Positions 7,237 to 37,317 of a DNA stretch of 64,000 nucleotides are shown here, piece by piece. The notes under the pieces are model-generated. The model did no database searches, had not been told where the DNA came from, and saw nothing but the letters and a program-made list of their open reading frames with translations. Source of the DNA: Peptococcaceae bacterium (GTDB taxonomy: Bacteria; Bacillota; Peptococcia; Peptococcales; BICA1-8); NCBI GenBank assembly GCA_049366715.1, contig JBMNCQ010000055.1:168542-232541 (forward strand), given 5' to 3'. The position numbers and the translations under genes were made by a program. Each line of letters begins with the position of its first letter. The first letter of the stretch is position 1.

Positions 7237-7320
7237 AATATCTCCTCTTTTTTTCCTTTATTATATAATATTCGACGTTCTTTAGAATATAGTGACGTTT
7301 AATAAAGAAAAAAGTTCCCA

Positions 7321-7366
7321 TAAAAATTAAAGCTAAAGGCATAATATCATCATTACCGCCTTTAGC
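7321..7366 (-). terminator. rho-independent terminator after cyclophilin gene
   Basis: Minus strand: GCTAAAGGC...GCCTTTAGC hairpin followed by TTTAATTTTTA. Confidence 0.6.
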
Positions 7367-7406
7367 CTTAATCTCTAAATAGCGTGCTTATCCCTGTTCC
7401 GTCTCC

Positions 7407-7928
7407 CTAGAGTCTTTCCGGCTCAGGAAATTCGGCACCAAAAGTATCCACACTAACCTTTTTCATTCTTTGATCCTCCAGCGGCTTGTCATTGGCTCCT
7501 GTTTTTACGCCGGCAATGGCATCAACTGTTTCCATACCCTCGATGACCCTGCCGAAAGCTGCATACTCCCCATCCAAATGAGATGAATTCTTGTGCATGA
7601 TAAAAAACTGGGAACCGGCAGAATTAGGCATCATTGACCTGGCCATGGAAATAACGCCCCGTTCGTGTTTTAGATTATTCGGGACTCCGTTCATTTTAAA
7701 CTCACCTTTAATGGCATATCCCGGTCCGCCTGTCCCCATGCCCAGAGGACACCCCCCCTGAATCATAAAGCCGGGAATTACTCTATGGAAAATAAGTCCG
7801 TCATAAAAACCCTGACCGGCCAGAGAAACAAAATTCTGTACGGTATTCGGAGCGATTTCCGGGAAAAGCTCCGCTTTGATTGTACTGCCATCCTCCATTT
7901 CAATTGTTACAACGGGATTTTGACTCAT
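7407..7928 (-). CDS. ppiB: peptidyl-prolyl cis-trans isomerase, cyclophilin type
   Basis: 173 aa; FHRVIPGFMIQGG, SMARS..PNSAGSQFFI cyclophilin signatures. Confidence 0.9.
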   Translation of the reverse strand: MSQNPVVTIEMEDGSTIKAELFPEIAPNTVQNFVSLAGQGFYDGLIFHRVIPGFMIQGGCPLGMGTGGPGYAIKGEFKMNGVPNNLKHERGVISMARSMMPNSAGSQFFIMHKNSSHLDGEYAAFGRVIEGMETVDAIAGVKTGANDKPLEDQRMKKVSVDTFGAEFPEPERL

Positions 7929-21809: not shown

Positions 21810-22526
21810 ATGACTGATAACTTAAGGCAAGAACAGCAGGTTCAACCCGGGCCTTGTCCCCTTGACCCGGAAACCGGTATCCCGGTCTGCCCCCCACCTA
21901 CGGAAATAGACATTATTAAAGTCAATAAAGTTTTTAATGAATGTATGCACACGCAAGTAGTTGAAGGTGTCATTACCGGCTGGACTACTGCCAATACTAC
22001 AGATGCTACTGAAGCGTCCTGTGATTCTGTCTCAGTAAGTAATGTTACCTGTACTGTTTTAAACGGTAACGATATTGTAAGGGTAACCTTTGAGCTTCAG
22101 GTATGTGCAACTGTACCTTTAGACACCGGCGGCGTTCAGAGATTATGTGCAACTGAAACGGTGACCCGGACCTTAGCTATTGAGAGAGCAAGTGAAGAAG
22201 GCTTAAACGTCCAGTGCCATATCTTCCCGGAATGTTTGTTCTGCTATATCTCGGAAAGGGACAGCGCAACCGGCGGGGTAGAAGCCGTAACTTGTTGTGT
22301 AGGTGTGCTGATTTTATTAAAAGTTGATGCTGAAGTACAATTATTAATTCCTACTTATGGGTATCCCGGACCACCGCCCGAATGTGAAGAATTCTTAGGT
22401 GAGTGCCCGACAGACTTTAATCCGGATTGGCCCCCCTATCCCCCTCAGCTGCTGTTTGGTACTTCCGCAGCGAAAAAAGGCAACGGCACATATGTAAGAG
22501 CTCAGAAAAAAGGATGTAAAAAATAA
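21810..22526 (+). CDS. Cys-rich conserved hypothetical protein, paralog of 14685..15380
   Basis: 238 aa; same conserved blocks as the 14685 product; TAAGGAGG RBS. Confidence 0.75.
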   Translation: MTDNLRQEQQVQPGPCPLDPETGIPVCPPPTEIDIIKVNKVFNECMHTQVVEGVITGWTTANTTDATEASCDSVSVSNVTCTVLNGNDIVRVTFELQVCATVPLDTGGVQRLCATETVTRTLAIERASEEGLNVQCHIFPECLFCYISERDSATGGVEAVTCCVGVLILLKVDAEVQLLIPTYGYPGPPPECEEFLGECPTDFNPDWPPYPPQLLFGTSAAKKGNGTYVRAQKKGCKK

Positions 22527-22813: not shown

Positions 22814-23218
22814 ATGACAACAAAAAAACCACAGCATCATAAGCAATGTGGTTGGCCATACTACGCAATACAGCAAGCCTCTACAACAAATCAGCCTGCT
22901 CTTACAAATGATCTGGTTATTATCGCAGACTGCGTAGCTAATGCTTATGAGAAACTTAATGACGACTTTCTGAAAGAAAAAAACATCGATTTATTGTGCC
23001 CTAAGATTGATAATAACAACCACTGCATCCAAAAACTCAGTAACTTGATCAAACAATACAACATCACAAAAATCATTACCGTAGAAATGGAATTGAAATG
23101 CTGTGGCATCTTAACAAAGCTGGTCAAGCAAGCTGTCGAAAATACCAATCGGAACATTATCATAAAAGAAAAAATTGTGACCAAAAATGGCCAATTAAAA
23201 GAAAAAGGAACGAAATGA
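22814..23218 (+). CDS. hypothetical protein (134 aa, several Cys)
   Basis: ORF with AGAGGTGA RBS; no family recognised. Confidence 0.45.
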   Translation: MTTKKPQHHKQCGWPYYAIQQASTTNQPALTNDLVIIADCVANAYEKLNDDFLKEKNIDLLCPKIDNNNHCIQKLSNLIKQYNITKIITVEMELKCCGILTKLVKQAVENTNRNIIIKEKIVTKNGQLKEKGTK

Positions 23219-23401: not shown

Positions 23402-24184
23402 CTATTTTGCTGTAAATATTTCCGTTACATACAAGGTTGAACCGTTTTTATAATCGACACCAATTCCTACATAAGTGTACCCTTCATTTAAAATAGCTGC
23501 CCGGTGTACGGAACTATTCATAAACCCTTGATGAGCTTTCGTAACACTTGAAGTTTTACCTAAATTTTCACCTGCATAGCGAAAATCTACTCCACCATTT
23601 TTCAGCATTGTAGATACTTTTCCGTAAGTTGGTGATTCATGAGCAAAATAGTTATTCTCGATCATATCGTTTGTTTTAACATCTGCCCATTCCGCAAGCT
23701 CTGCATCATAAATAAGCGGGTCTAAACCTTGAGCGGCTCTTTCTTGATTAATCAGTTCAAACAATTGCTGCTCTTCTGCCGATGTTGCACCGGAATCCTG
23801 TGAAGGCTCCGTTGGATCAGGTTCAGCAGGTGTAGGGTCCGGCTGAGGTTCCGGAGTAGGTGTAGAATGATTACCGTTATAATACTTATTATAATAGTAA
23901 TAGGGATTGGACCAATAATTCGGAGCTGCTGTTGTTGCCGCAGGTTCCTGGGTCTCGGGCTCCGCAGATTCTGTTTCCTCTTCTGTTGCCGGAGCTTGTG
24001 TATCCGTATCGGTATCGGTTCCTGTTCCATAATATTTTGCATACCATTCAGGACTTAACCACTGGTTGGTTGCAGCTTCCACCGGGCTTGTCCCCAAACC
24101 GATAAAAACAAATGCAGATAAAAATAAAACAACTAAGCCGGTTTTAACTAGGCTTCTCAATAAAATCCCCTCCATTTTGATCAT
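23402..24184 (-). CDS. secreted CAP/SCP-domain protein (YkwD-like) with TD-repeat and Pro/Glu-rich linker
   Basis: 260 aa; signal peptide; GTDTDTDTQ and PEPQPDPTPAEPDPTEP linker; C-terminal ...LINQERAAQGL..L......A......M......F.H.S..G... CAP-like domain. Confidence 0.7.
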   Translation of the reverse strand: MIKMEGILLRSLVKTGLVVLFLSAFVFIGLGTSPVEAATNQWLSPEWYAKYYGTGTDTDTDTQAPATEEETESAEPETQEPAATTAAPNYWSNPYYYYNKYYNGNHSTPTPEPQPDPTPAEPDPTEPSQDSGATSAEEQQLFELINQERAAQGLDPLIYDAELAEWADVKTNDMIENNYFAHESPTYGKVSTMLKNGGVDFRYAGENLGKTSSVTKAHQGFMNSSVHRAAILNEGYTYVGIGVDYKNGSTLYVTEIFTAK

Positions 24185-24396: not shown

Positions 24397-25926
24397 CTAG
24401 ATCCTTCTTCGAAAAGGAAATTGAGGATATGGTTTCCGGCTTTTCATTTCTAATTCTTTAAGGTTTTTCACAAGTGCTTTGTTTTCATCTTCTTTTTCCA
24501 TAAATTTATTTCTCAGCTGATTATTTGTGGCTTTTACTACCTCCAGGCTCTGCCTCAGCTTCAGAACTTCTTCCGTTAAATTTTGCAGTTTCTCAACTTC
24601 CTGTTGCAGCTGTTTTTTTTGGTCCTGCTCCTTTTGCAGAGCCTGCTGCAAATTGTCAATTTCCAGAGCCTGTAAAGCTTCCTTTTCTTGCAGAACATTA
24701 ACCTGGTGCGTTTTTTTACTATTTTCCTCTTCCAGCCTGCTTATTAAGCTATTTAGCCCGGCAATTTTTTCTTCCCGGGACCTGTCATTAACCCTATTCC
24801 TTGCAGAAGATTGCCCGAAATTTTTATAATATTTGATCACTTTCCGCCTTTCCCGGCTTAATGGCGGGTTGACTTCCTCCCCGGACTGCTGACCGGCAGC
24901 ATCCTTCAGCAATAAGAATACCGCCGTACTATCCGGCTCTAGCGCCGCTAAATCAATCCCCGGATATTGATCAATATCCAAAGCTAACCGTTTAGCAAAA
25001 TATTTTACCGGCATGAATTGTGTTGTTAACTGCCGGGCGGCCGCGTACTTGTGGATATACTCATTCTCCTGCCAGAAAATTTCTATTTCCGCACCGTTCA
25101 GATAAATAAGAGGTGATAAAGAGACACCTTCTTTAGATGATATGCACTGTTCTTTGAGCCAGCCGGAATTAAGCCAGACTCCTTTCGTTTTGAACTTCCG
25201 GGTATACATGACTCTGGCATTCATATGCTCCAGCCGCAGCCAGGTGATATGCAGATTACCCTCTTGGTCAAAGAGGGCCGCAGGATTAATATTGATACCT
25301 TGTGAAGATGTTATGACACTTTTTAAGCCCCACTGGCTCTCTTTACCCATCCGGTAAACTAACTGGTACTTTCCTTTCTGATAAATCTGGTAGATGAGAT
25401 AAAGGACATCTCCCTGCGTAACGGCAGCACACCCTCCCGGTCCGTTTCCCCAGCCTTTATCAATAACAAAAGAGTCCTGCCACAGCCCATCTCTTTTAAA
25501 ACAGCACCGGATCTTCCACTCTTTCGTCTGGAAATTTTCCGTAATAATGATTACATACATCTTGTCCCCACTAAAACCTATTTTTTGAAAAGTAATCTTA
25601 TCCCTTTTTTCCAGCCCGATATTAATTATTTCAGGAGAATCTTCGCCCAAAGAATGACATATGATCTGCTCCAGATGATTTTTATAACTAATATAGAAAT
25701 GATTAGCAGGACTTACCCCCATCGTAAATAAACCTGAAAAATCTTTTCTTAGCTCCCGGAAACGGCTTTCTCCAGGATAATAAATATAAAAAGAACCGTC
25801 CTCCACCTTTAGTGTCCATTCTTGCCCGAGTCCTATAATCTCCAGTTGATTAGAGCCAAAAAGACCGTAATTTTCCTCCATTTCAGCACCACCTAAATAA
25901 TTAAACTCCCATTGTATCTTATTCAA
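24397..25926 (-). CDS. hypothetical 509-aa protein: beta-rich N-terminal region plus about 130-aa C-terminal coiled coil
   Basis: C-terminus LQEKEALQALEIDNLQQALQKEQDQKKQLQQEVEKLQNLTEEVLKLRQSLE...; no enzymatic motif. Confidence 0.6.
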   Translation of the reverse strand: MNKIQWEFNYLGGAEMEENYGLFGSNQLEIIGLGQEWTLKVEDGSFYIYYPGESRFRELRKDFSGLFTMGVSPANHFYISYKNHLEQIICHSLGEDSPEIINIGLEKRDKITFQKIGFSGDKMYVIIITENFQTKEWKIRCCFKRDGLWQDSFVIDKGWGNGPGGCAAVTQGDVLYLIYQIYQKGKYQLVYRMGKESQWGLKSVITSSQGININPAALFDQEGNLHITWLRLEHMNARVMYTRKFKTKGVWLNSGWLKEQCISSKEGVSLSPLIYLNGAEIEIFWQENEYIHKYAAARQLTTQFMPVKYFAKRLALDIDQYPGIDLAALEPDSTAVFLLLKDAAGQQSGEEVNPPLSRERRKVIKYYKNFGQSSARNRVNDRSREEKIAGLNSLISRLEEENSKKTHQVNVLQEKEALQALEIDNLQQALQKEQDQKKQLQQEVEKLQNLTEEVLKLRQSLEVVKATNNQLRNKFMEKEDENKALVKNLKELEMKSRKPYPQFPFRRRI

Positions 25927-25976: not shown

Positions 25977-26003
25977 ACAAAAAAAAGCGATTCCCATAAG
26001 ATA
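25977..26003 (+). promoter_or_regulatory. sigmaK/E-type promoter candidate
   Basis: AC-N16-CATAAGATA, 42 nt upstream of ATG at 26045. Confidence 0.45.
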
Positions 26004-26044: not shown

Positions 26045-26194
26045 ATGGCAGAAGCTGTAGGTCAATATGGATATGGATATGGATGTAATGCATTTTGTAA
26101 TGAATTTTTCTTTGAAACATTATTAATGATTATCATTATTATGTGGTTGTTAAAATGGCTCTTTGGATTTGGTTTTGACGGAGCTTACTGTTAG
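26045..26194 (+). CDS. tiny membrane protein, family A (49 aa)
   Basis: MAEAVGQYGYGYGCNAFCNEFFFETLLMIIIIMWLLKWLFGFGFDGAYC; AAAGGAGG RBS; the track ORF 26006..26194 is an N-terminal over-extension. Confidence 0.75.
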   Translation: MAEAVGQYGYGYGCNAFCNEFFFETLLMIIIIMWLLKWLFGFGFDGAYC

Positions 26195-26373
26195 ATTTTA
26201 AAAAATCCCTCTCCTGACCATGGGGACATATCCCAACCTGTAAAATCAGGGATACTCCCTGGCCCGATGTTATCCCTGTAAGAATAGATATTCCCTGTTC
26301 TCTTGAGGAGATATGTCCCTTTTCCATGCTAAGCATTTATGCCAATTTTTTTTCGAAAGGAGGGCCAGTATTT

Positions 26374-26847
26374 ATGCCGCAAGATAGAAATAAAGATCCT
26401 AAAAACATGAGAGGCTTTGACCCCAATACAATTTACTCCCTGTTTGATTCCTTCAACAACTTGAGTAATGCCTTTAAACAACTAAACTTACCCAATATGA
26501 CTAAATTCCTTTATTTTAACCCCCCTAATCCTGCTCATAAGCCTAAAGGAGGTAAAAAATATTTTAAGCCTGCTAAGCCCACTAAACCTGCAAAACCCGG
26601 CAAACCACAAAAACCTCTGAACTTTAACGGTTTTTTGAAAGCCTTTTCCGATGGTTTAAATGCCTTAAATTTTTCGAATCCTTTTAGGCTAAAGAGACAA
26701 CCAGGTTCTTTTCCCCGTTCATCCAGAAGAATCATTGTCAAAAGGACCTTTCTGTCTAATCAATTAATTGTTGTAAAACCGCCGGGGTATACAGAAAAAG
26801 ACACTCCGGAGGAAATCATAACGGAGGAAACCATAACCGAGGAATAA
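26374..26847 (+). CDS. Lys/Pro-rich low-complexity protein (157 aa)
   Basis: Start set at MPQDRNK (AAAGGAGGG 9 nt upstream); HKPKGGKKYFKPAKPTKPAKPGKPQKP tract. Confidence 0.55.
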   Translation: MPQDRNKDPKNMRGFDPNTIYSLFDSFNNLSNAFKQLNLPNMTKFLYFNPPNPAHKPKGGKKYFKPAKPTKPAKPGKPQKPLNFNGFLKAFSDGLNALNFSNPFRLKRQPGSFPRSSRRIIVKRTFLSNQLIVVKPPGYTEKDTPEEIITEETITEE

Positions 26848-26984: not shown

Positions 26985-27335
26985 TTATTCTTCCTCCACT
27001 TTTGCCATTTCTGCTTCCGCTATTTCTTCAACTACCTCGGCTATCTCTTCTGCTGCCTCATCCATAGGTTCTACCTGTGCTTCCGGCTGATACCCCTTTT
27101 TACTTTTTTCTGCCGGTCTTACCGGTTTTCTAGGTGCAAAAATACCTGCTATTTTACTGCTTCCTTTGGCGACTATTTCTATCTGAGGTGCGAAATTTTC
27201 TATAGAGCTTAAAAGTTGATCAAAGTTATCAGCGAACATCCTTAAATTATTTGTTACTCCCTTTAGATTAGAGACAGTCCTAAGCAAGGGCTTTGTTCTA
27301 CTGAGATTTTCATAACCTTTGCCATACTGTGACAT
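26985..27335 (-). CDS. hypothetical protein with FAD-x2-D-x-LL-x-S-x-E motif and acidic tail (116 aa)
   Basis: AAAGGAGG RBS; motif region SNLKGVTNNLRMFADNFDQLLSSIENFAPQIEIV aligns with the 28125 product; 28 nt downstream of 27364..27777. Confidence 0.6.
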   Translation of the reverse strand: MSQYGKGYENLSRTKPLLRTVSNLKGVTNNLRMFADNFDQLLSSIENFAPQIEIVAKGSSKIAGIFAPRKPVRPAEKSKKGYQPEAQVEPMDEAAEEIAEVVEEIAEAEMAKVEEE

Positions 27336-27363: not shown

Positions 27364-27777
27364 TCAATCATAACTGAATAACCATTTTAAAAGCCAAAAA
27401 ATAATAATTTGCATGAAAAGCGCTTCAAAAAAGCAATTATTGTTACATACCCTTTCCGGAAATGCTTCATAACCTACAGCTTCATCTTCTTCCTCCAGGG
27501 TTACCGGATGATTAACTTCAACATTTTCAGCCGGTGGTAAATGAGCTCCTAAACCATAGGCTTTCACCGGTTTTTGAGGCGGAAATACATTTTTCAGAAT
27601 TCCCTTTGTTACTCCTGTAAGAAGACTTTGCCCGGACCTGGGAGTTTTGGGGAATTCTTTGCTGCTATTAACAGGATTCTTCTGCATTTCTTGCTTTGCT
27701 ATGTTTATTTTTTCCCGGGGCTTTTTATCTTGTAAACTGTTGTGCTTTTGATTCCCATAAGTATCTAACTCAGCCAT
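27364..27777 (-). CDS. 137-aa protein whose C-terminus is a family-A tiny-TM module (fusion form)
   Basis: C-terminal CNNNCFFEALFMQIIIFWLLKWLFSYD* matches stand-alone family A peptides; TAGGAGGGG RBS. Confidence 0.7.
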   Translation of the reverse strand: MAELDTYGNQKHNSLQDKKPREKINIAKQEMQKNPVNSSKEFPKTPRSGQSLLTGVTKGILKNVFPPQKPVKAYGLGAHLPPAENVEVNHPVTLEEEDEAVGYEAFPERVCNNNCFFEALFMQIIIFWLLKWLFSYD

Positions 27778-28124: not shown

Positions 28125-28712
28125 ATGCCCCGCTACAGAAAAATAACACCTGTAAATATTAATGAGCAAGAACGAATTCTAAGTGAAAAGTTCAATCAGA
28201 ATAGACCTAAGTACAAAAAAACAGTAAGGAGAACCCAGAGACCTAATGAAAATCCTTTATTACCTTTATACCAATTAAAAACCAAACTACAACGTTCTTT
28301 TGAAAATAGAAGCACCCAGGAAGTCGTCTTTGATACTTGTAAAAGTTTAAGAGGGATCTGCGGTCAAGTCCGGTCTTTTGCCGATGAAGTTGATAACCTC
28401 CTAGGTTCGGTAGAATCCATTGTTCCGGTTATGGAAACAGTAGTATCCAGCTATGCCCGTTCTTTAAAAAATAAAGAGCAGCCCATTTTAGAGAAAGATA
28501 AAATCCCTGCGGAGGAAACAAACAAGGCCAAAGAAGACCAAAGTACTGATAACGAAAATCCAATCCGGGAAAATACAGCTGATAAAACTTCCAAAATGCC
28601 TGCCAAAATGCCGTCGGAAATGGAAATCAAAGAGTTCCTGAACAATCCCCTGGTGGCAAGTTTACTACAAAATTTAACGCAAAAGATGATGACAAATAAA
28701 CAGCAGCAGTGA
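28125..28712 (+). CDS. hypothetical 195-aa protein sharing the FAD-x2-D-x-LL-x-S-x-E motif
   Basis: KSLRGICGQVRSFADEVDNLLGSVESIVPVMETV (14/34 identical to the 26985 product by eye); GAAGGAG RBS. Confidence 0.6.
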   Translation: MPRYRKITPVNINEQERILSEKFNQNRPKYKKTVRRTQRPNENPLLPLYQLKTKLQRSFENRSTQEVVFDTCKSLRGICGQVRSFADEVDNLLGSVESIVPVMETVVSSYARSLKNKEQPILEKDKIPAEETNKAKEDQSTDNENPIRENTADKTSKMPAKMPSEMEIKEFLNNPLVASLLQNLTQKMMTNKQQQ

Positions 28713-28866: not shown

Positions 28867-29067
28867 TTAAAAGGGTAATCCTAATTTGCTTATTAATTTT
28901 TGTGTTAATTCTTCCATTTGCTCCTTGCTTTTTATTCCACCGGCAGCTTCGATTTCTGCGATCACCTCATTTATCACCTTTCTTTTGTCTTCAGGTAAAA
29001 ACATTTCGAATTGAGCAACAATTGCTTTTAACTCCTCAATGCTTTGCGGCATTTGAAATTGATTCAT
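28867..29067 (-). CDS. hypothetical helical small protein (66 aa)
   Basis: ORF 16 nt downstream of 29084..29503; GGGAGG RBS. Confidence 0.5.
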   Translation of the reverse strand: MNQFQMPQSIEELKAIVAQFEMFLPEDKRKVINEVIAEIEAAGGIKSKEQMEELTQKLISKLGLPF

Positions 29068-29083
29068 AATTAACCTCCCGCTT

Positions 29084-29503
29084 TTATTTTATTGTCCTGC
29101 TGTATATAGGAGTATAGGTCTTTTCCTCCCGTAAAGAATTATCTACTCTTCTGGAATACAATACCGTATGCTTTGTTTCAGGTTGAGGGGCTTTTGCCTT
29201 TTTGGTTCTTTTCGGTTCCATAACCCGGGAATATAATACACTATGATTCTCTTTAGGGTCTTCGGCAATTGCTTCAATAACTTTCCTTTCCGGCAGATCT
29301 TCTTCCTTCCCAATCGTTCTGTTAAATAATACTTTTATTTCGTCAGATGTGATCGTATCTTTAACCTCTTCCTCCTCTTTGGATCTTACCGTTCCCCACG
29401 GCCTTAAAAATCCGCTGCCCTGGCTAAAGAATGCCAAAAATACAACAGCTATTAACAGAAAAATACTAAAAGATTTGTTTTCATTATCATAAAGACCAAA
29501 CAT
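29084..29503 (-). CDS. N-terminally anchored protein with three (V/I)(L/P)YSR repeats (139 aa)
   Basis: TM helix FSIFLLIAVVFLAFF; HSVLYSRVMEP..., HTVLYSRRVDN..., YTPIYSRTIK*; AAAGGAGGGAG RBS. Confidence 0.55.
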   Translation of the reverse strand: MFGLYDNENKSFSIFLLIAVVFLAFFSQGSGFLRPWGTVRSKEEEEVKDTITSDEIKVLFNRTIGKEEDLPERKVIEAIAEDPKENHSVLYSRVMEPKRTKKAKAPQPETKHTVLYSRRVDNSLREEKTYTPIYSRTIK

Positions 29504-29591: not shown

Positions 29592-29706
29592 TCCTAGATC
29601 ACATGATTTTTGAATTCCAATTAATTACAATTTGCCCCTTCCTGCTTAGCACGGGAAAATAAAGTTTTACTATATTTTTTAATGCTGAGCGGTAAATTTA
29701 TTTATC

Positions 29707-29734
29707 ACCTTTATGATTTGCCCCTCATAAAATA
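29707..29734 (+). promoter_or_regulatory. sigmaK/E-type promoter candidate
   Basis: AC-N17-CATAAAATA, 32 nt upstream of ATG at 29766. Confidence 0.45.
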
Positions 29735-29765: not shown

Positions 29766-29876
29766 ATGAATACCAACTGGCATAATCTCAACATGTATTT
29801 TTTTGAAACGATCCTGATGGTCATAATTATCTTTTGGCTTTTACGCTGGTTATTCAGCAGCAATTACACAGCCTGA
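29766..29876 (+). CDS. tiny membrane protein, family A (36 aa)
   Basis: MNTNWHNLNMYFFETILMVIIIFWLLRWLFSSNYTA; CAAGGAGG RBS; the track ORF 29682..29876 is over-extended. Confidence 0.7.
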   Translation: MNTNWHNLNMYFFETILMVIIIFWLLRWLFSSNYTA

Positions 29877-29889: not shown

Positions 29890-29919
29890 AGAGTAAGTTT
29901 TTAACTTACTCTTTTTTTT
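29890..29919 (+). terminator. rho-independent terminator
   Basis: AGAGTAAGTT-TTT-AACTTACTCT-TTTTTTT. Confidence 0.85.
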
Positions 29920-30009
29920 GGTCAATCCACCGCCAGACATTGATTCTCTTAAAGTATTATATGTATTCGGCTGTAAAAAGTTTATGACTTTTCTTGTAAA
30001 CTTAAATGC

Positions 30010-30036
30010 ACAGTTTAGAGAGTACTTCATAAGATA
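30010..30036 (+). promoter_or_regulatory. sigmaK/E-type promoter candidate
   Basis: AC-N16-CATAAGATA, 47 nt upstream of ATG at 30083. Confidence 0.45.
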
Positions 30037-30082: not shown

Positions 30083-30229
30083 ATGGCTGATAAAACTGCT
30101 AGCCAATTTGGTTTCTTTGGTGGGGAGTGTTTCTTTAACGAATGCTTCTTCGAAACTCTTTTAATGATAATCATAATTTACTGGCTTTTAAGGTGGTTAT
30201 TTGGTTTTAACTACTATGGTGCTGTTTAA
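30083..30229 (+). CDS. tiny membrane protein, family A (48 aa); not in ORF track
   Basis: MADKTASQFGFFGGECFFNECFFETLLMIIIIYWLLRWLFGFNYYGAV; AAAGGAGG RBS. Confidence 0.8.
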   Translation: MADKTASQFGFFGGECFFNECFFETLLMIIIIYWLLRWLFGFNYYGAV

Positions 30230-30406: not shown

Positions 30407-30419
30407 GGCTTCTCAGATA

Positions 30420-30455
30420 AAGGGTAAAGATGGATTCCACCTTTACCCTTTTATT
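30420..30455 (+). terminator. rho-independent terminator
   Basis: AAGGGTAAAG-ATGGATTCCAC-CTTTACCCTT-TTATT. Confidence 0.7.
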
Positions 30456-30516
30456 AACTGGCAAATTCAAATTTTTAGGAAGTGAAATTTTACATAAGAG
30501 GGGGTTTTGATTAATA

Positions 30517-30645
30517 ATGACTGAAGAAAGCAGACAATACGGATATGGCGGCTTTCCTTTCGGGGGCTACTGGTGGATTTGGATAATAATAGGTGTATTA
30601 TTTTTCTTATTCTTCTTTGGCGGATGCGGCTTTGGTCCCTGCTAA
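30517..30645 (+). CDS. tiny membrane protein, family B-like / YjcZ-like (42 aa); not in ORF track
   Basis: MTEESRQYGYGGFPFGGYWWIWIIIGVLFFLFFFGGCGFGPC; AGAGGGGG RBS. Confidence 0.65.
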   Translation: MTEESRQYGYGGFPFGGYWWIWIIIGVLFFLFFFGGCGFGPC

Positions 30646-30685
30646 AATTTTTTTATCTAATATTAAAAATGAGAGGAGAATCATC

Positions 30686-30802
30686 ATGGCTGATAATGTT
30701 GCCGGTCAATTTGGTTTTGGCTACGGTTACCAATGGCTGGTTTGGGTGGCTATAATCGCCTTGGTCATTTACTTATTCGCATTTCCTTGCTGTGGAATAT
30801 AA
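30686..30802 (+). CDS. tiny membrane protein, family B / YjcZ-like (38 aa)
   Basis: MADNVAGQFGFGYGYQWLVWVAIIALVIYLFAFPCCGI; GAGAGGAG RBS; the track ORF 30593..30802 is over-extended. Confidence 0.75.
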   Translation: MADNVAGQFGFGYGYQWLVWVAIIALVIYLFAFPCCGI

Positions 30803-30834
30803 AAAAAAGGGCAGATAATACTGCCCTTTTTTTA
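30803..30834 (+). terminator. rho-independent terminator
   Basis: AAAAGGGCAG-ATAATA-CTGCCCTTTT-TTT. Confidence 0.85.
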
Positions 30835-30841
30835 TACATTA

Positions 30842-30869
30842 ACCGTTTATTAAAAAATATCATAGTATA
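30842..30869 (+). promoter_or_regulatory. sigmaK/E-type promoter candidate
   Basis: AC-N17-CATAGTATA, 44 nt upstream of ATG at 30913. Confidence 0.45.
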
Positions 30870-30912
30870 TATTGTAAACAAAATATAGCCACTCTGGAGA
30901 GGGGGTTAGCAT

Positions 30913-31035
30913 ATGGCTGATAATGTTGCCGGTCAATTCGGTTACGGTTTTGGCAACCAATGGCTGGTTTGGGTAGCTTTAATCGCTTTGATCATCTATG
31001 TGATCTGCTTCCCATACGGCGGGGGATACTGTTAG
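30913..31035 (+). CDS. tiny membrane protein, family B / YjcZ-like (40 aa); not in ORF track
   Basis: MADNVAGQFGYGFGNQWLVWVALIALIIYVICFPYGGGYC; GAGAGGGGG RBS. Confidence 0.8.
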   Translation: MADNVAGQFGYGFGNQWLVWVALIALIIYVICFPYGGGYC

Positions 31036-31121
31036 CCTTAATGAGAAGGGGTAGCGGTTCCAAACATGAACAACTAATACTAAGTCTTTATGAATTATCT
31101 ATCCTGAAAGGAGGTCACTAT

Positions 31122-31250
31122 ATGGCTGATAATGTTGCCGGTCAATTCGGTTACGGTTACGATTACGGTTCCCAATGGCTGGTCTGGGTAGCTTTAATCG
31201 CTTTGATCATCTATATTTTCTGCACCCCATACGGGGGCGGCTGGTGTTAA
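31122..31250 (+). CDS. tiny membrane protein, family B / YjcZ-like (42 aa)
   Basis: MADNVAGQFGYGYDYGSQWLVWVALIALIIYIFCTPYGGGWC; AAAGGAGG RBS; the track ORF 30960..31250 is over-extended. Confidence 0.8.
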   Translation: MADNVAGQFGYGYDYGSQWLVWVALIALIIYIFCTPYGGGWC

Positions 31251-31354
31251 TCTCGAGCCCAAGGGAGCATTAAATCCCTTCGGCTTAACCTTAAAAAGTT
31301 ACTACGTAATATCGGATACTGATTTATGATCTTTGGAAAGGAGGTTAATCACAT

Positions 31355-31477
31355 ATGACGGATAATGTTGCCGGTCAATTCGGTTTTGGTTATGGCAGTC
31401 AGTGGCTGATCTGGGTAGCTTTAATCGCTTTGATCATCTATATTTTCTGCACCCCATACGGCGGAGGATGCTGCTAA
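31355..31477 (+). CDS. tiny membrane protein, family B / YjcZ-like (40 aa); not in ORF track
   Basis: MTDNVAGQFGFGYGSQWLIWVALIALIIYIFCTPYGGGCC; AAAGGAGG RBS; shares a 52-nt identical run with the 31122 copy. Confidence 0.8.
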   Translation: MTDNVAGQFGFGYGSQWLIWVALIALIIYIFCTPYGGGCC

Positions 31478-31517: not shown

Positions 31518-31557
31518 AAAAAAAACCATGTTTCAAAATTTTGAAACATGGTTTTTT
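31518..31557. terminator. bidirectional terminator
   Basis: AAAAAAAACCATGTTTCAAA-AT-TTTGAAACATGGTTTTTT between convergent genes. Confidence 0.85.
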
Positions 31558-31579: not shown

Positions 31580-31921
31580 TCAGACAATCTGAACCAGTGC
31601 TTTATCCACATCATCGGCAATCGTAAAAATTTTATCAAGTTTTGCAAATCCGATTATCTTTTTCACATACTCCGTCATACCTGCATACACAATTTGGCCC
31701 TGCCCCTGATTCATATATTTAAATAAAGAAATGAGCATTCCCAACCCCGAAGAATCAAGCATAGGCACCTGAGACAAATCCAATACCAACTTATTAGCCT
31801 GAGAATTCTTTAATTCCTCTTTAATCTTCTCCTTTAAATCATTTGAGTACAATAAGGTTACTTCACCTTTAATGCTGGCCACTAAAATATCTTTCTCCTG
31901 GTTTAATACTAATTCAGCCAT
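31580..31921 (-). CDS. STAS-domain anti-sigma-factor antagonist (SpoIIAA/RsbV-like), orphan
   Basis: 113 aa; ...LVLDLSQVPMLDSSGLGMLISLFK... (conserved phosphorylatable Ser context DSSGLG). Confidence 0.8.
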   Translation of the reverse strand: MAELVLNQEKDILVASIKGEVTLLYSNDLKEKIKEELKNSQANKLVLDLSQVPMLDSSGLGMLISLFKYMNQGQGQIVYAGMTEYVKKIIGFAKLDKIFTIADDVDKALVQIV

Positions 31922-32125: not shown

Positions 32126-33751
32126 ATGAAGATAAAAAAGTTAAAGTTTTTGCAGTTTTTAATCAGTCAAAAACCCCTTAAACCCTTCTGGGACAATGAA
32201 AACACCAGAAGCCGCAGCAACGGAGATCAGAATAATGAGAAACTGACCGCCAGCTTGGAAAAAAATATAAAAATGCTGAAAAGTACCTTGGGAGAAAGCA
32301 GCGATATCGTATATCACAGATTTACCATGGGTACGGAAGGAAGACCGGAAGCTGTCCTGATTATGGTTGACGGTATAGTAGATAAAAATACGGTTAATAA
32401 TTTTGTGATCAAAACACTGATGATTGATAGTCAAGTTACGAACAATAAAAGCGGGCTCTACCCCAACTATACCATCGACACGATTAAAAATACCCTGGTG
32501 TCCGTCGGAGGCATACAAGAGGCTGTCTTCCTCAGGGATATTATAGACAATATTCTGGCCGGGGATACTGTCTTAGTAATAAACGGTTTTAATATCGGAC
32601 TCATCATCAGTACCAGGGGCTGGAAAAGCCGGGGCATTGAGCAGCCTGAAACAGAGTCAGGGGTTCGCGGCCCTCATGACGGCTTCACCGAAACACTGCG
32701 CATAAATACGGCCTTAATCCGCCGCCGGATCAGAAATCCCGCTCTTACTTTTGAATCTTTTATCATTGGGAAACGGACCAAAACCGATATCGCTGTCGTT
32801 TACTTAAAAGGCATCGTTAAGCCCGGCTTAGTGGAAGAAATAAAAAAGCGCTTACAAAGGATAGATAATGATGCCATCCTGGAATCTGGATATATCGAAC
32901 AGTTCATTGAGGATGCTCCCCTTTCTCCTTTCAGTACCATAGGTAATACCGAAAGGCCGGACATCGTAGCAGCAAAACTTTTGGAAGGACGGGCAGCAAT
33001 TATCACCGATGGAACACCGGTAATTCTTACCATGCCGATGATTTTTTTGGAAAGCTTTCAAGCCGCGGAAGACTATTACTCCCGCCCCTATTATGTAAGT
33101 ATCGTAAGAGCCCTGAGGTTCCTTTCTTTTTTTATAAGTGTCTTTGGCCCGGCTTCTTTTGTAGCCTTAACAAGCTTTCACCAGGAATTGATACCCACAC
33201 CGTTATTGCTAACCATGGCTGCGGCCCGGGAAGGTACTCCTTTCCCCTCCGTCATTGAAGCAACTCTCATGGGGATAGCTTTTGAAATCCTGAGGGAAGC
33301 CGGTATCCGCCTGCCCCGGCCTGTTGGTACGGCCATCAGCATCGTAGGGGCATTGGTAATTGGGGATGCGGTAGTATCGGCAGGATTAATCGGCGCTCCC
33401 ATGGTTATTGTCGTAGCCATCACAGCCATTGCTTCCTTCGTCGTCCCCCCTCAGGCCGACGTCGGGGGAATAGCCAGAATCATCCTGGTGTTTATGGCCG
33501 GTTTTTTAGGGGCCTTCGGTATCATGATCGGCCTTTTAGGAGGACTGATCCATATTTGTGCCTTAAGATCTTTTGGTACACCTTACTTTTCTCCTTTTGC
33601 CCCGCTTAAAATTTCCGATCTCAAAGATACTATTGTCCGGTTTCCTTTGTGGGCCATGCTCACCAGACCTTCCAGCATGGGCTGGAATAACCCTGTTAGA
33701 GAAGACTTGGGGAATATGCCGGCCCCACCCCAGAAAAAGAAACAGCCTTAG
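32126..33751 (+). CDS. spore germination protein, GerA-family A subunit
   Basis: 541 aa; soluble N-terminal domain plus C-terminal TM bundle; typical blocks RRRIRNP, ESGYIEQFIED, FPSVIEA. Confidence 0.85.
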   Translation: MKIKKLKFLQFLISQKPLKPFWDNENTRSRSNGDQNNEKLTASLEKNIKMLKSTLGESSDIVYHRFTMGTEGRPEAVLIMVDGIVDKNTVNNFVIKTLMIDSQVTNNKSGLYPNYTIDTIKNTLVSVGGIQEAVFLRDIIDNILAGDTVLVINGFNIGLIISTRGWKSRGIEQPETESGVRGPHDGFTETLRINTALIRRRIRNPALTFESFIIGKRTKTDIAVVYLKGIVKPGLVEEIKKRLQRIDNDAILESGYIEQFIEDAPLSPFSTIGNTERPDIVAAKLLEGRAAIITDGTPVILTMPMIFLESFQAAEDYYSRPYYVSIVRALRFLSFFISVFGPASFVALTSFHQELIPTPLLLTMAAAREGTPFPSVIEATLMGIAFEILREAGIRLPRPVGTAISIVGALVIGDAVVSAGLIGAPMVIVVAITAIASFVVPPQADVGGIARIILVFMAGFLGAFGIMIGLLGGLIHICALRSFGTPYFSPFAPLKISDLKDTIVRFPLWAMLTRPSSMGWNNPVREDLGNMPAPPQKKKQP

Positions 33752-33777
33752 AACAGGAGAAAGGTAAGGTATGCAGT

Positions 33778-34947
33778 ATGAACAGCCTGATCAAAATATT
33801 ATCCGTCCTGATGCTCTCCCTTGCCCTGCCTGTTTCAGGCTGCTGGGACCGTAAAGAACTGGACCAACTGGCTATCGTATCCAGTATAGCCTACGATACC
33901 GCTGCGGAACCCGAAGGGATTACCGTAACTGCCCAATTAATCCTTTCCGGCAAAGTTTCTGCCCCGGGAACGGGCGGCGGCGGCGGGGAAAAAACTCCGG
34001 TCCGGGTAATCCAAGCCACAGCGACAACACCCTTTGCCGCTGTCAGAAACATGTCTTTACAGTCTGAAGAAAAACCCTATTTTTCCCATAATCCCATCCT
34101 CGTCATGGGCCGGGGAATTGCTGAAAAAGGGGTTTCACCAATATTGGATTTCCACTTCCGGGATCCCGAACATAGAAGAACCGGCTATTTCCTGGTAGCA
34201 GAAGGAAAAGGACAGGATATTATTGCCATTGGAACTGAGCAAGAGGAGATTCCGGGAATGTTCATCAAAAACATGCTGGAAACGGCTAATTTCAATACTT
34301 CAAAGATAGCACTGATCACCGAACAAGAATTTATGGAAAGACTGATGAGTAAAACCACCTCGCCCTATGCCACTTTGATTAAAACTTCCGAAGATGGGAA
34401 AGAAAAGACTTTGCGTCTGACAGGTACGGCGGTCTTTAAAAGGGATAAGCTGGCAGGTAAATTCGATTACCGGGAAAGCCGCGGTCTTTTATGGATATTG
34501 GGAAAAGTCAAAAGCGGTATTATCGTAGTCCCCTGCTCAGAACACAACGGTGAAATCGGCCTGGAGATCATCCGCGCCAAAAGCAAAATTATTCCGGAAA
34601 TTACGGAAAACTCCATCAAGATAACCATCAAGGTCAGTGAAGAAGGAAATCTGGGAGATCAAAGCTGTTCGGAGGATTTAACAACACCTGCCGCCTGGCA
34701 GGAATTAGAAAAAAAACAGGCTGCGGCTATTAAGGAAGAAATGATGGCCGCCGTTGCCAAGTCCCGGGAACTTAACAGCGATGTATTTGGCTTTGGGGAT
34801 GCCGTTCACCGCAAATATCCCCAGCTGTGGCGCGATGAACTGGAAGAAAACTGGGACGATTATTATCCTGAACTGGAAATTGAAATCATAGTGGAGGCCA
34901 GGCTGCGCCGGCCCGGGATGATTACCAAGCCCGCCGTACCGCAGTAA
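33778..34947 (+). CDS. Ger(x)C-family germination lipoprotein
   Basis: 389 aa; signal peptide with lipobox VSGCWDRKELD, the hallmark start of GerAC-type proteins. Confidence 0.85.
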   Translation: MNSLIKILSVLMLSLALPVSGCWDRKELDQLAIVSSIAYDTAAEPEGITVTAQLILSGKVSAPGTGGGGGEKTPVRVIQATATTPFAAVRNMSLQSEEKPYFSHNPILVMGRGIAEKGVSPILDFHFRDPEHRRTGYFLVAEGKGQDIIAIGTEQEEIPGMFIKNMLETANFNTSKIALITEQEFMERLMSKTTSPYATLIKTSEDGKEKTLRLTGTAVFKRDKLAGKFDYRESRGLLWILGKVKSGIIVVPCSEHNGEIGLEIIRAKSKIIPEITENSIKITIKVSEEGNLGDQSCSEDLTTPAAWQELEKKQAAAIKEEMMAAVAKSRELNSDVFGFGDAVHRKYPQLWRDELEENWDDYYPELEIEIIVEARLRRPGMITKPAVPQ

Positions 34948-35110
34948 ATGACTTGGCAGCCATGGAGAATAGAGAGTTGAGATCGGAGTATTACAGCCAA
35001 GCAGCGGCACCGCACCAGGAGCCGCTAAGAGAAAACTATGGAAACAACAATAAGCCGGAAATTTTTTAACTGGTTTCTGTAACTAGTCACGGACCGGGGG
35101 GGATAAGTCT

Positions 35111-36214
35111 ATGCAGTTGGAAGGAGGTAAAATTGATAATTTCAGCTTATTTTTCCTCATCATCGGCTTTACTATTGGTTCTACGACCATAATCAGTCCT
35201 ACACCCGGAGCAGGACATGACTCATGGCTGGCGGTACTGGCCGGGATGCTGGAAGGAGTTTGCTATGCCGCGGTTTTTTTATCTTTAGCCCGGAAATTCC
35301 CCGGTAAGAATCTCATTGAGATCATTAACCTGGTTTTCGGCAGATTTTGGGGCAAAATTATTTCCCTCGGCTACTTATGGTATTTTCTCCACCTGGGTTC
35401 TTTGGTCTTAAGAAACTTTGGGGACTTTTTTAATTTGATGGTCTTTCCCAAAACCCCTATGGTGATTATCATCGGTCTGACGATACTGGTTACTGCCTCT
35501 GCGGTCAGGAACGGTGTCGAAGTTATCACAAGATGCAGTGTGGTTTTAGTTCCCTTGATCTTAGCGGCTTATATTTTTGATACACTGTTTATTATTCCTA
35601 AAATGGACCTGAGCAAGCTTTTACCAGTCTTCGACCTGCCTGTAAAAGACTTTATCAAGGCCAGCCATGCTGCAGCCACTTTCCCTTTTGGCGAAACGAT
35701 ACTCCTCTTAATGACGACGGCCTATGTTACCGATTACAAAAAAACCAGAAGTTATTTTATCAGCGCCCTGATTTTCATCAGCTGCTTTTTTTCTCTGGCA
35801 GCCGCCCGAAACACTGCAGTGCTCGGCACGTCGGCAGACATTCACCTCTATCCTTCTTATGAAGCAATACGTCTCATAGAAGTAGGCAGTATTTTAACCC
35901 GGTTGGAAGTGATTATAGACTTTACTATTTTTTTTATGGGCTTTGTTAAAATAGCCGTATGCTATTACGGAACGGCACTAGGTACTGCTCAGCTCTTAAA
36001 TTTACGTTCTTACCTGCCCCTTGTTATACCAATCGGCATAATTATGACTATTTTAAGCCTTACGCAATTTGAATCAGCCAGCGCAAATATTGAATGGGCA
36101 GCCAATTTTTATCCCTACTACAGCCTGCCCTTTCAAATCGGCCTTCCTCTCCTGGCCCTGATTATCACCTTTTTTAACAAAAAAACCCCTCAGAAGGCAG
36201 GTGAAAGCAGATGA
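35111..36214 (+). CDS. GerA-family B subunit (APC-type spore germination permease), copy 1
   Basis: 367 aa, 10 TM; N-terminal ...ISPTPGAGHDSWLAVL... Confidence 0.8.
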   Translation: MQLEGGKIDNFSLFFLIIGFTIGSTTIISPTPGAGHDSWLAVLAGMLEGVCYAAVFLSLARKFPGKNLIEIINLVFGRFWGKIISLGYLWYFLHLGSLVLRNFGDFFNLMVFPKTPMVIIIGLTILVTASAVRNGVEVITRCSVVLVPLILAAYIFDTLFIIPKMDLSKLLPVFDLPVKDFIKASHAAATFPFGETILLLMTTAYVTDYKKTRSYFISALIFISCFFSLAAARNTAVLGTSADIHLYPSYEAIRLIEVGSILTRLEVIIDFTIFFMGFVKIAVCYYGTALGTAQLLNLRSYLPLVIPIGIIMTILSLTQFESASANIEWAANFYPYYSLPFQIGLPLLALIITFFNKKTPQKAGESR

Positions 36215-37317
36215 AGCTGGAAGGAGGCAGAATATCATCCGGTCAGCTGGTTTTCCTCGTCATTTCTTTTAATCTTGGTACGGCCTTGTTAGCCAGTCCT
36301 TCCTCCCAGGCAGGGCACGATGCCTGGTTAACAATACTTGGCGGAATGGCGGAGGGAATTTTCTGCGCCTATGTTTTCACCAGCCTGGCTAGAAAATTTC
36401 CCGGGAAGACCTTAGTCCGGTACAATGATTTAATTTTCGGCCCTGTGATCGGTAAACTGATTTCCCTGGCTTATCTCAGCTACTTTTTTATCATAGCAAC
36501 ATTAACTTTGCGATTATTCGGTGATTTTTTCAGCGGACTGATTTTTCCCCAAACACCGATTATTGTGACAATCGGCCTCCTTGTCTTGATCTGCGCCTCG
36601 GGAGTACGAAACGGCATCGAGGTCCTGGCCCGCTGCAGCCAGGTTTTACTGCCCTTCGTCTTTCTAAATATCTTTATCACTACAATAGCAAGCATTAAAG
36701 ACATCGATATAAACAATTTCCTACCCCTTATGGATATACCTTTAAGGGATTTCCTCAGCGTCTGCTGTTTCTCCAGAGCTTTACCCTTTGGAGCAACCGC
36801 TACTTTTCTAATGATATTCGCTGCTGTAAATAATCAAAAAAAAATGCCGCCTTTTTTTCTCCTGGGCCTATTTATTTCCGGGCTGATATTAATTATCACA
36901 GCCATACGGAATACCGGCTTATTAGGCCCGACCACTACAATATCTACCTACTCTTCTTACCAGGCTACCCGGTTAGTCACTATCGGTGAGGTATTCACCC
37001 GGCTGGAAATATTAGTGGCCATAAATTTTTTAGCTATGGGATTTATTGCAATTTCTTTAGGCTATTATGCAGTTACCCTCGGCGTGGCCCAAATATTCGG
37101 GCTGAAAACTTATCTGCCCTTAGTGATCCCCCTGGGAGTTCTCCTGGTGGTGTTCAGTATTACCCAGTTTGCCAACTATTTTGAATACTTCCGCTTCAGC
37201 AGCAGAATATTACCTTATGCAGGCCTGCCTTTGGAATTAGGCATACCTTTACTTTCTTTACTTATTGTTAAACTTAGAAATATTGCCCCGCAAGAAACTA
37301 AGAAAAAAAAGGAATAA
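36211..37317 (+). CDS. GerA-family B subunit, copy 2 (tandem paralog)
   Basis: 368 aa; ATGA start/stop overlap with copy 1; roughly 45% identical by eye (SLARKFPGK, FGDFF, ASGVRNGIEV). Confidence 0.8.
   Translation: MKLEGGRISSGQLVFLVISFNLGTALLASPSSQAGHDAWLTILGGMAEGIFCAYVFTSLARKFPGKTLVRYNDLIFGPVIGKLISLAYLSYFFIIATLTLRLFGDFFSGLIFPQTPIIVTIGLLVLICASGVRNGIEVLARCSQVLLPFVFLNIFITTIASIKDIDINNFLPLMDIPLRDFLSVCCFSRALPFGATATFLMIFAAVNNQKKMPPFFLLGLFISGLILIITAIRNTGLLGPTTTISTYSSYQATRLVTIGEVFTRLEILVAINFLAMGFIAISLGYYAVTLGVAQIFGLKTYLPLVIPLGVLLVVFSITQFANYFEYFRFSSRILPYAGLPLELGIPLLSLLIVKLRNIAPQETKKKKE

Follow-up and report, generated by a model that had tools for sequence, protein, structure and literature searches.

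The 64,000-nucleotide (nt) stretch of a Peptococcaceae bacterium genome analysed here (hereafter the window; contig JBMNCQ010000055.1) carries, at 30517-31477 on the + strand, a head-to-tail array of five genes, C and A1 to A4, encoding peptides of 38-42 amino acids (aa). Together with four genes upstream, B0 to B3, these make up one superfamily with three subfamilies, A, B and C. The superfamily is new: no Pfam or NCBIfam model matched it, its members are labelled 'hypothetical' or left unannotated, and it comprises 15 representative clusters worldwide. The kind is already known, namely that of multi-copy tiny hydrophobic sporulation peptides; a single N-terminal motif spanning three helix types, a fixed array order and fusions of the B helix have, to our knowledge, not been described before. 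As for function, we consider it an evenly balanced proposition, judged from the sequence evidence below, that the products are tiny membrane peptides of the spore envelope, made by the mother cell late in sporulation.

30517-30645, + strand: gene C, 42 aa, MTEESRQYGYGGFPFGGYWWIWIIIGVLFFLFFFGGCGFGPC; sole subfamily C member in the window; ACOWWO_13605, hypothetical
30686-30802, + strand: gene A1, 38 aa; 'first-A' type, helix WVAIIALVIY; starts 40 nt 3' of C
30913-31035, + strand: gene A2, 40 aa; 'second-A' type, helix WVALIALIIY; ACOWWO_13610
31122-31250, + strand: gene A3, 42 aa; second-A type with a 2-codon insertion; mosaic; ACOWWO_13615
31355-31477, + strand: gene A4, 40 aa; second-A type; ACOWWO_13620

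A scan of 185,579 species-representative genomes recovered the A family in four genomes beyond that of the window: Clostridiaceae bacterium BRH_c20a (L003), a Bacillota metagenome-assembled genome (MAG; L004), a Clostridia MAG from a digester (L005) and a Peptococcales MAG (L006, the same as L001). The gene order is the same in these four relatives, two or three B genes coming first, then a C gene (in all but L004) and then two A genes, and in all five genomes a convergent STAS gene follows the array. An earlier reading of this DNA from its letters, the first-pass annotation, had called five tandem copies unusual; on the contrary, an array of several genes is ancestral and conserved in this clade, and Bacillus cereus AH187 lists six genes of the YjcZ family (PMC8313275). 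A word-indexed search of 5.8 billion protein clusters returned five relatives for A and three for C, and a HMMER profile search of 1.84 billion 50%-identity representatives (E<=0.001) returned 15 clusters, all of the superfamily. In a scan of Joint Genome Institute (JGI) metagenomes we obtained one further true locus, L019, apparently from the organism of L003 (83% best-segment identity, as for L003), the remaining matches being chance helix matches in Proteobacteria. No contigs encoding P0001 were found, and tblastn against plasmids gave no match for A3 nor for a YjcZ-like control, low-complexity filtering probably being part of the cause.

The array genes are genuine, conserved coding genes. 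All five open reading frames (ORFs) of the first-pass annotation were recovered on the + strand at starts 30517, 30686, 30913, 31122 and 31355, and the peptide motifs it quoted are correct, as are the tails CCGI, GGGYC, GGGWC and GGGCC. It also rightly noted that three of the five are invisible in a 60-aa ORF track: C, A2 and A4 fall short of 60 aa and no longer ORF encloses them; A1 sits inside a 69-aa ORF and A3 inside a 96-aa ORF. Each gene has, 6-10 nt 5' of its ATG, a Shine-Dalgarno sequence of the GGAGG/GGGGG type. Orthologs of C, with 72-90% identity, are present in L003, L005 and L006, and A1 matches the first A gene of L003-L006 by position and by helix and tail similarity. In the between-genome comparison, the proportion of synonymous differences (pS) is 0.69-0.82, that is, saturated, against 0.11-0.20 for nonsynonymous ones (pN), and the resulting pN/pS of 0.14-0.29 (0.14 for C) at saturated synonymous sites means that the peptide sequences are under strong purifying selection; among the A copies of the window the ratio of nonsynonymous to synonymous substitution rates (dN/dS) is 0.13-0.37. 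An assembly artefact of one gene, one of the outcomes that the first-pass annotation had named as fatal to its claim, is ruled out, as nucleotide differences between the copies amount to 13-28% and the flanks are unrelated, being no more alike than shuffled sequence. Chance ORFs are ruled out by the copy divergence, the unique flanks, the conservation across genomes and the pN/pS values. In a collection of 15 billion proteins the exact products of B2, C, A2, A3 and A4 are present and those of A1, B0, B1 and B3 absent; these last four appear to be conserved micro-genes missing from the public annotation of this MAG.

As seen by alignment, A, B and C follow one plan, in which an N-terminal motif is joined by a Gly/aromatic linker to a single hydrophobic helix, with a short Gly/Cys/Tyr tail after it. 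Across the types the motif reads M-[ATPV]-D-[NKQ]-x-[AS]-[GR]-Q-[FY]-G, with MxDNVAGQ(F/Y)G as its core form, and since the N-terminal codons vary synonymously across genomes, the constraint acts on the peptide rather than on the RNA. The hydrophobic segment is WL(V/I)W(V/I)A(L/I)IAL(I/V)I(Y/F) in subfamily A, WWIWIII(A/G)VLFF(L/I)FFF in C and FFETLLM(I/V)III(Y/I/M)WLLRWLF in B. Profile-profile comparison with hhalign joined A to C at 97% probability over 33 columns, and A to B at 96.5% over 12 N-terminal columns. The array had been presented as one family of five next to a separate second family; the former holds for A1-A4, the first gene, C, belonging to a different subfamily, and the latter is correct in that B genes lie upstream, these being however related to A and C through the N-terminal motif.

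The peptides, 36-49 aa long, are neutral to acidic (net charge 0 to -3) and reach Kyte-Doolittle 15-residue maxima of 2.3-3.1, and those of the array have the 'tiny transmembrane' (tiny TM) layout, i.e. less than about 50 aa with one helix and Gly/Tyr/Cys-rich flanks. For A3, AlphaFold2 predicts a single helix at residues 18-34 with unstructured ends (predicted local distance difference test, pLDDT, of 84 over residues 21-30 and 64 on average). At least one Cys follows the helix in 11 of the 12 A-family peptides of the window and L003-L006, and is the last residue in A2-A4 of the window and in the second A of L006; the second A of L004 (P0003, tail TPYYV) has its sole Cys at the helix end. P0004 terminates in CFPSFGIY, and P0059 and P0061 each have one Cys near the helix end. 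The first-pass annotation had suggested that the tail Cys may be cross-linked or lipidated; no known bacterial C-terminal lipidation signal was found in the array peptides. Relatives of B in other Peptococcaceae MAGs are longer, 65-73 aa, and bear Cys/Asn/Gly-rich extensions, e.g. ...CGCGCGCNNGC, and in the distant locus L015 two B peptides, one long and one short, are grouped with a long C-like peptide that has CNTCNTCNSCNSC repeats. This locus also contains homologs of two unknown neighbour genes of the window, and its peptide group adjoins SpoIIM, an Amidase_3/SH3 gene and a large serine recombinase.

The B helix is found both in genes of its own and as part of a larger product:

26045-26194, + strand: gene B0, 49 aa; B subfamily, with ribosome-binding site (RBS) and motif MAEAVGQYG; 3.6 kb upstream of the array
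27364-27777, - strand: gene for a 137-aa protein; B module (CNNNCFFEALFMQIIIFWLLKWLFSYD) as C-terminus after a hydrophilic N-terminal region
29766-29876, + strand: gene B1, 36 aa, MNTNWHNLNMYFFETILMVIIIFWLLRWLFSSNYTA; truncated B-subfamily member without the N-terminal motif
30083-30229, + strand: gene B2, 48 aa, MADKTASQFG...CFFNECFFETLLMIIIIYWLLRWLFGF...; ACOWWO_13600
30287-30406, + strand: gene B3, 39 aa; 57 nt 3' of B2

B1 has AAGGAGG 8 nt 5' of its start and an alternative ATG at 29682; as a sigma-K-type promoter sits 3' of the latter, the 36-aa form is the likely product. In the 137-aa protein the B module occupies the final ~25 residues (CFFEALFMQIIIFWLLKWLFSYD), and the same module forms the C-terminal end of two longer proteins, P0060 (187 aa) and P0057 (110 aa), the portion of P0060 that precedes it being hydrophilic and Lys/Glu/Pro-rich. 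From these sequences, the B helix seems to be a portable C-terminal anchor.

The predicted promoters point to sporulation. In B. subtilis the sigma-K consensus is KCACM at -35 and GCATANNNTA at -10 (PMC3416734), alternatively given as MWCM-16-CATANNNTD (PMC9562818). For the pattern AC-N16/17-CATANNNTA the window has 18 matches, where Markov shuffles have 3.65 +/- 2.0, and for KCACM-N15/16-CATANNNTA it has three against 0.20 expected, all three within the gene island that ends with the array, upstream of the 28125 ORF, B1 and B2. Four related loci contain ten such full-consensus sites (about 0.14 expected), six of which precede B or second-A genes by 38-51 nt, the others being upstream of conserved neighbour genes. 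Moreover, a CATA-NNN-TA element is kept 38-51 nt 5' of the ATG of B and second-A genes at every locus, bar the second A gene of L004, which starts 49 nt after the first A without a separate element of this kind. The promoter matches are, in sum, enriched and conserved at the same positions across loci. B0 and the 137-aa protein have sigma-K-like sites at 25977-26003 and 27841-27814, respectively; the sites and terminators in and around the array are as follows.

29705-29734, + strand: sigma-K-type full consensus, TCACC-N16-CATAAAATA; ends 31 nt before the B1 ATG
29890-29919, + strand: intrinsic terminator after B1
30008-30036, + strand: sigma-K-type full consensus, GCACA-N15-CATAAGATA; ends 46 nt before the B2 ATG
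30419-30458, + strand: hairpin and T-run after B3 (GGGTAAAG...CTTTACCC)
30809-30833, + strand: intrinsic terminator after A1 (GGGCAG-ATAATA-CTGCCC-TTTTTTT), read from the sequence
30840-30869, + strand: sigma-K-type near-consensus, TAACC-N16-CATAGTATA, -35 matching 4/5 and -10 perfect; ends 43 nt before the A2 ATG
31520-31557, unstranded: perfect 19+19-nt palindrome flanked by A and T runs; bidirectional terminator common to A4 and the STAS gene

The B2 site has an ortholog in L004 (GCACA-N15-CATAAGATA) and the A2 site has orthologs in L003, L005 and L006 (TCACA-N16-CATAGTATA, 45-47 nt before the second A gene), and the site at 30840-30869 is likely the promoter of an A2-A3-A4 transcript. Combining the promoter sites with the terminators at 29890-29919, 30419-30458, 30809-30833 and 31520-31557, we infer four transcription units, B1, B2-B3, C-A1 and A2-A3-A4, with B2 and B3 (57-nt gap) as well as C and A1 (40-nt gap) probably co-transcribed. 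In five of five loci the last B gene has a hairpin of similar sequence after it, GGTAAAG...TTACC (30419-30451 in the window; 3' arm CCTTACCC in L004); its stem is kept though the surrounding intergenic DNA is unalignable, which exceeds what a plain terminator needs. Rfam searches over 25-33 kb gave sub-threshold matches alone, located over terminators.

The surroundings of the array are in keeping with a sporulation locus:

31580-31921, - strand: STAS-domain (SpoIIAA-like) gene, convergent with the array
32126-37317, + strand: germinant-receptor operon (GerA, GerAC and two Spore_permease genes)

STAS gene and gerA operon are direct neighbours in the window, L003 and L004; in L005 a response-regulator/SpoIIE-type PP2C phosphatase gene (6583-7752, - strand) stands between them. 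On the other side, spore-type glycosyltransferases lie upstream of an island of ~10 kb (~21.7-31.5 kb); L003 and L005 likewise have a GT2-TPR glycosyltransferase upstream, and L001 has a Glycos_transf_2 gene that is incomplete. Among the tested ORFs of the island, a CAP-domain gene (23402-24184) is the sole exception to a general lack of Pfam or NCBIfam matches, the unmatched ones being 21810-22526, 22814-23218, 24397-25926 (-), 26326-26847, 26985-27335 (-), 27364-27777 (-), 28125-28712, 28867-29067 (-) and 29084-29503 (-). Sigma-K-type sites stand 30-60 nt upstream of island genes at 21724, 25977, 27841 (-) and 28065. The island is a candidate lineage-specific spore-coat gene cluster.

The A copies have a history of their own. 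A1 (helix AIIALV) is orthologous to the first A gene of the other genomes and A2-A4 are copies of the second A (helix ALIALII); as every other genome has one second-A gene, the triplication is lineage-specific. Synonymous divergence (dS) is 0.30-0.54 among A2-A4 and about 1-2 for A1 against them. The signs of recent gene conversion noted in the first-pass annotation are moderately supported. Both identities on which it leaned are exact: the 52-nt run common to A3 and A4 (at 31183 and 31410; permutation P about 0.001), and the 25-nt string GATAATGTTGCCGGTCAATTCGGTT in A2, A3 and A4 (30919, 31128 and 31361). A3 is indeed a mosaic, its 5' 37 nt being identical to A2 and its 3' part containing the run identical to A4, and at informative sites A2 and A3 agree against A4 at seven (positions 4-61) and A3 and A4 against A2 at eight (positions 63-129). 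Similarity between the A copies is confined to the coding sequences, ending at the stop codon and lost in the flanks; the flanks of A2, A3 and A4 align globally no better than shuffled controls, and hence the duplication unit is not delimited beyond the coding sequence. Coding-confined gene conversion fits this mosaic better than a single recent unequal crossover, since the standard model of the latter would give a middle gene of the opposite polarity, with its 5' part from the downstream copy. Across all five genomes, linker similarity is higher between the A1 and A2 positions within a genome (0.74) than between orthologs (0.52-0.54), and helix and tail follow gene position (0.68 against 0.58), a linker pattern that points either to partial conversion having recurred or to interacting partners having co-evolved.

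The reading of the peptides as spore-envelope components draws on the promoters, the neighbourhood and island, the Tyr/Cys/Gly composition and the B helix as C-terminal anchor, and within it we are more confident of sporulation-specific small membrane peptides than of their being structural and cross-linked. With a strong predicted RBS on each, the five array genes would be highly translated, yielding single-pass membrane peptides of a superfamily known from few spore-formers of the Peptococcales/Clostridia. The mother cell would transcribe them late in sporulation, in the four units given above and using sigma-K-type promoters. The peptides would then insert in the outer forespore or mother-cell membrane, where the paralogs probably form mixed oligomers, and may serve as structural or anchoring parts of the spore envelope, with Tyr/Cys-rich ends that could be available for cross-links to coat material. 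The Cys/Asn/Gly-rich extensions of the longer relatives (CNTCNTCNSCNSC, CGCGCGCNNGC) are of a cross-linkable composition. A bolder version, which we hold to be unlikely, would make A, B and C a modular spore-envelope anchoring system of a Peptococcales lineage, combining a docking or cross-linking hook with interchangeable helices that together would build a proteolipid layer of mixed composition at the outer forespore membrane. Here the hook would be MxDNVAGQ[FY]G with its invariant Gln and the Gly/Tyr linker, forming for instance Gln-Lys or di-Tyr links to Lys/Pro-rich neighbours, the B helix would double as tail anchor of larger coat proteins, and the co-variation of the A1 and A2 linkers would stem from selection for matched partners or from recurrent gene conversion.

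Several observations weigh against the spore-envelope reading. C-A1 has no recognisable sigma-K-type promoter in any locus, and none of their own was recognised for A3 and A4; sigma-K-, sigma-E- and sigma-G/F-type sites were sought by eye and by pattern for C-A1, A3 and A4, and none was convincing. L015 has no exact sigma-K consensus match, and the promoter calls apply a Bacillus (B. subtilis) consensus to an uncultured Peptococcaceae genome. The helix flanks of subfamily A are without positive charge, so that the topology is not predictable. The conserved linkage to gerA, which is forespore-expressed in Bacillus, sits awkwardly with a mother-cell role. Finally, YjcZ itself is without known function, and thus 'works like YjcZ' explains little.

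The YjcZ family is the known group to which the first-pass annotation had assigned the array, and its two models, TIGR01732 of NCBIfam ('YjcZ family sporulation protein', tiny_TM_bacill; 26 positions, cut-off 21.35 bits) and PF09680 of Pfam (YjcZ_2; 24 positions, gathering threshold 21 bits), were searched at E<=10. TIGR01732 gave no match for C, A1-A4, B1-B3 and the 137-aa protein, nor for P0005, P0009, P0027, P0028, P0032, P0041 and P0046, and PF09680 none for eight window peptides, P0027, P0041, P0058-P0061 and the long C-like peptide of L015. Two YjcZ-like controls, sequences composed around the GFALIVVLFILLIIVG core of the family rather than database entries, scored 42 bits on TIGR01732, and 47.6 and 51.1 bits on PF09680. 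With the profiles silent and the controls scoring, membership of the YjcZ family is rejected; lack of similarity to the YjcZ profiles is one half of an outcome that the first-pass annotation had named as refuting its claim. What stands of the assignment is the tiny one-helix layout with a Gly/Tyr N-terminus and a Gly/Cys tail, and the likeness is one of kind (size, composition, one helix) and not detectable homology. The sporulation setting that was part of the same claim is supported by the gerA neighbourhood and by the sigma-K-type sites at the B genes, at A2 of the window and at the second A of three relatives. No literature was found on TIGR01732, tiny_TM_bacill or PF09680. One may still ask whether the peptides are true but highly divergent YjcZ members, a clostridial version of the known Bacillus family. 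Size class, Gly/Tyr/Cys ends about one helix, sigma-factor type and the multi-copy habit (six in B. cereus AH187, PMC8313275) would agree with this; however, nine window peptides and about 15 relatives went without a match where the YjcZ-like controls reached 42-51 bits, none of the 15 clusters among the 1.84 billion representatives has the GFALIVVLFILLIIVG core, and the MxDNVAGQ(F/Y)G motif is not in the YjcZ profile. We therefore regard divergent membership as quite unlikely.

Size and hydrophobicity are also typical of type I toxins, tandem arrays of which are known (Ibs, Ldr), and the peptides might permeabilise membranes, either as holin-like effectors of mother-cell lysis, for which a late mother-cell promoter and the Amidase_3 gene near the L015 relatives would be suitable, or as type I toxins held by antisense RNAs. 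Sigma-70-like sites do run antisense over the start codons of A1-A3 (30680-30709, 30908-30936 and 31117-31145, - strand; TTGACC-17/18-TATAGT/TATGCT/GATGAT, e.g. TTGACC-17-TATAGT at 31145-31117). They are probably fortuitous: their -35, TTGACC, is the reverse of the conserved Gly-Gln codons GGTCAA, their -10 is not conserved elsewhere, and the 16 promoter-like matches in the region are a mild excess over 9.5 +/- 3.2 in shuffles. In addition, the consensus RBS is exposed in each gene, which is not so for most type I toxins, charged tails are missing from these neutral or acidic peptides, no Rfam family reached threshold, and PADLOC defence models gave nothing for the peptides and weak chance matches for two neighbours. 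Eight to nine co-oriented paralogs with purifying selection and a conserved order fit structural genes better, and permeabilising peptides are in our view improbable. More improbable again is a role with the GerA-type germinant receptor encoded next to the array, the peptides being its accessory subunits or its partners in the membrane. Bacillus does have small membrane 'D' subunits in its germinant receptors, and array, STAS and gerA are linked in the window, L003, L004 and L005, but the array constitutes separate units, with the convergent STAS gene and the bidirectional terminator between it and gerA, the sigma-K-like promoter type is that of the mother cell and receptors are forespore-made in model organisms, and the distant L015 relatives are not beside ger genes. 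The least credible candidates are precursors of secreted antimicrobials, i.e. multi-peptide leaderless bacteriocins or Cys-containing ribosomally synthesized and post-translationally modified peptides (RiPPs). Tandem genes of 36-49 codons for hydrophobic, aromatic-rich Cys peptides give such an impression, and aureocin A70 is a multi-peptide bacteriocin locus of comparable look. However, no radical-SAM, LanM/LanBC, YcaO, C39-peptidase ABC transporter or immunity gene adjoins the array in the five genomes, and Pfam scans of the neighbours in the window, L003, L004 and L005 detected glycosyltransferase-TPR, STAS, SpoIIE-type phosphatase, GerA-operon genes and unknowns only. Furthermore, a net charge of 0 to -3 is not cationic, there is no double-glycine-type leader, the B module also ends proteins of 110-187 aa, and no plasmid record matched.

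Several neighbours of the peptide genes deserve mention in their own right. The 139-aa protein at 29084-29503 (-) has an N-terminal hydrophobic segment and three (V/I)LYSR / IYSR repeats (HSVLYSRV, HTVLYSRR and TPIYSRT), with no family match, and its ortholog in L001 (3344-3694, -) keeps the repeats (TILYSRV, VRFSRI and NILYSRT). A family of 66-73 aa with the motif QFEMFLPEDKRK / EQFAPFISQDK always adjoins the peptide genes, the distant L015 included; its members are 28867-29067 (-) of the window, 3030-3239 (-) of L001, 5664-5885 (-) of L015, and P0037, in which the N-terminus of this family is fused to a long B peptide. The paralogous window proteins 26985-27335 (-) and 28125-28712 (+) have the motif R-x-FAD-x-(F/V)D-x-LL-x-(S/A)(I/V)E, and with a 70-aa relative directly 3' of the long B gene of L015 (6230-6442) represent another conserved companion family of the peptide array. 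The 173-aa Lys/Pro-rich protein at 26326-26847 (+), with KPxKP-type repeats (KPKGGKKYFKPAKPTKPAKPGKPQKP) and no family match, is coat-protein-like in composition and could be a Lys donor for cross-links. On the gerA side, the STAS neighbour may belong to a partner-switching module, as suggested by the SpoIIE-type gene of L005. The two Spore_permease (GerAB-type) genes of the window are in tandem, at 35111-36214 and 36211-37317, with a 4-nt overlap, and L003 has four ORFs like the window operon in size and order (545, 385, 371 and 366 aa), the first alone being confirmed as GerA.

Tiny hydrophobic sporulation peptides are among the least understood endospore products and are often missed by annotation. 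The present locus is a second, independent family of the YjcZ-like kind, in anaerobic Peptococcales, and it offers several handles on function: promoter signatures, paralog order, a common motif and natural helix fusions. This is of relevance for organisms that are dominant in subsurface and digester communities and that are without a genetic model. Should the sporulation reading be wrong, the array is still a rare conserved micro-protein family needing explanation.

In the context of known systems, YjcZ is similar in comprising peptides of 30-50 aa with Gly/Tyr/Cys-rich ends about one very hydrophobic helix, in several copies per genome (six in B. cereus AH187, PMC8313275), and in its link to sigma-K, B. 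subtilis yjcZ being in the sigma-K regulon (PMC517825) and the genes here having predicted consensus-type promoter sequences. It differs in the helix sequences, here WLVWVALIALIIY, WWIWIIIAVLFFLFFF and FFETLLMIIIIYWLLRWLF, and its profiles, which cover the helix only (24-26 positions), have no counterpart of the N-terminal MxDNVAGQ(F/Y)G; the present family, moreover, is a fixed multi-subfamily array in few Peptococcales/Clostridia genomes, not in Bacillaceae. The tandem paralogs and hydrophobic peptides below 50 aa recall the Ibs/Sib and Ldr/Rdl arrays and aureocin A70; unlike these, the present locus has no conserved antisense RNA, transport or immunity genes, the peptides are non-cationic, and strong exposed RBSs accompany sporulation-type promoters and a sporulation-type neighbourhood. 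SpoVM of B. subtilis (26 aa) is made in the mother cell, binds the forespore outer membrane and anchors coat assembly. The peptides described here are likewise very small, with mother-cell origin and membrane association predicted; SpoVM, however, is an amphipathic surface helix, sigma-E-dependent, single-copy and widely conserved, in contrast to the fully hydrophobic ~17-residue helix, the sigma-K-type promoters and the many paralogs found here. CotY/CotZ/ExsY and CotC/CotU of Bacillus and CdeC of C. difficile, finally, share with the array late mother-cell expression under sigma-K (here predicted; an exsY sigma-K promoter is described in PMC9562818), a Cys/Tyr/Gly-rich composition and clustered paralogs; these coat proteins are soluble and much larger, without a TM helix, and there is no sequence similarity between them and the tiny peptides of the array.

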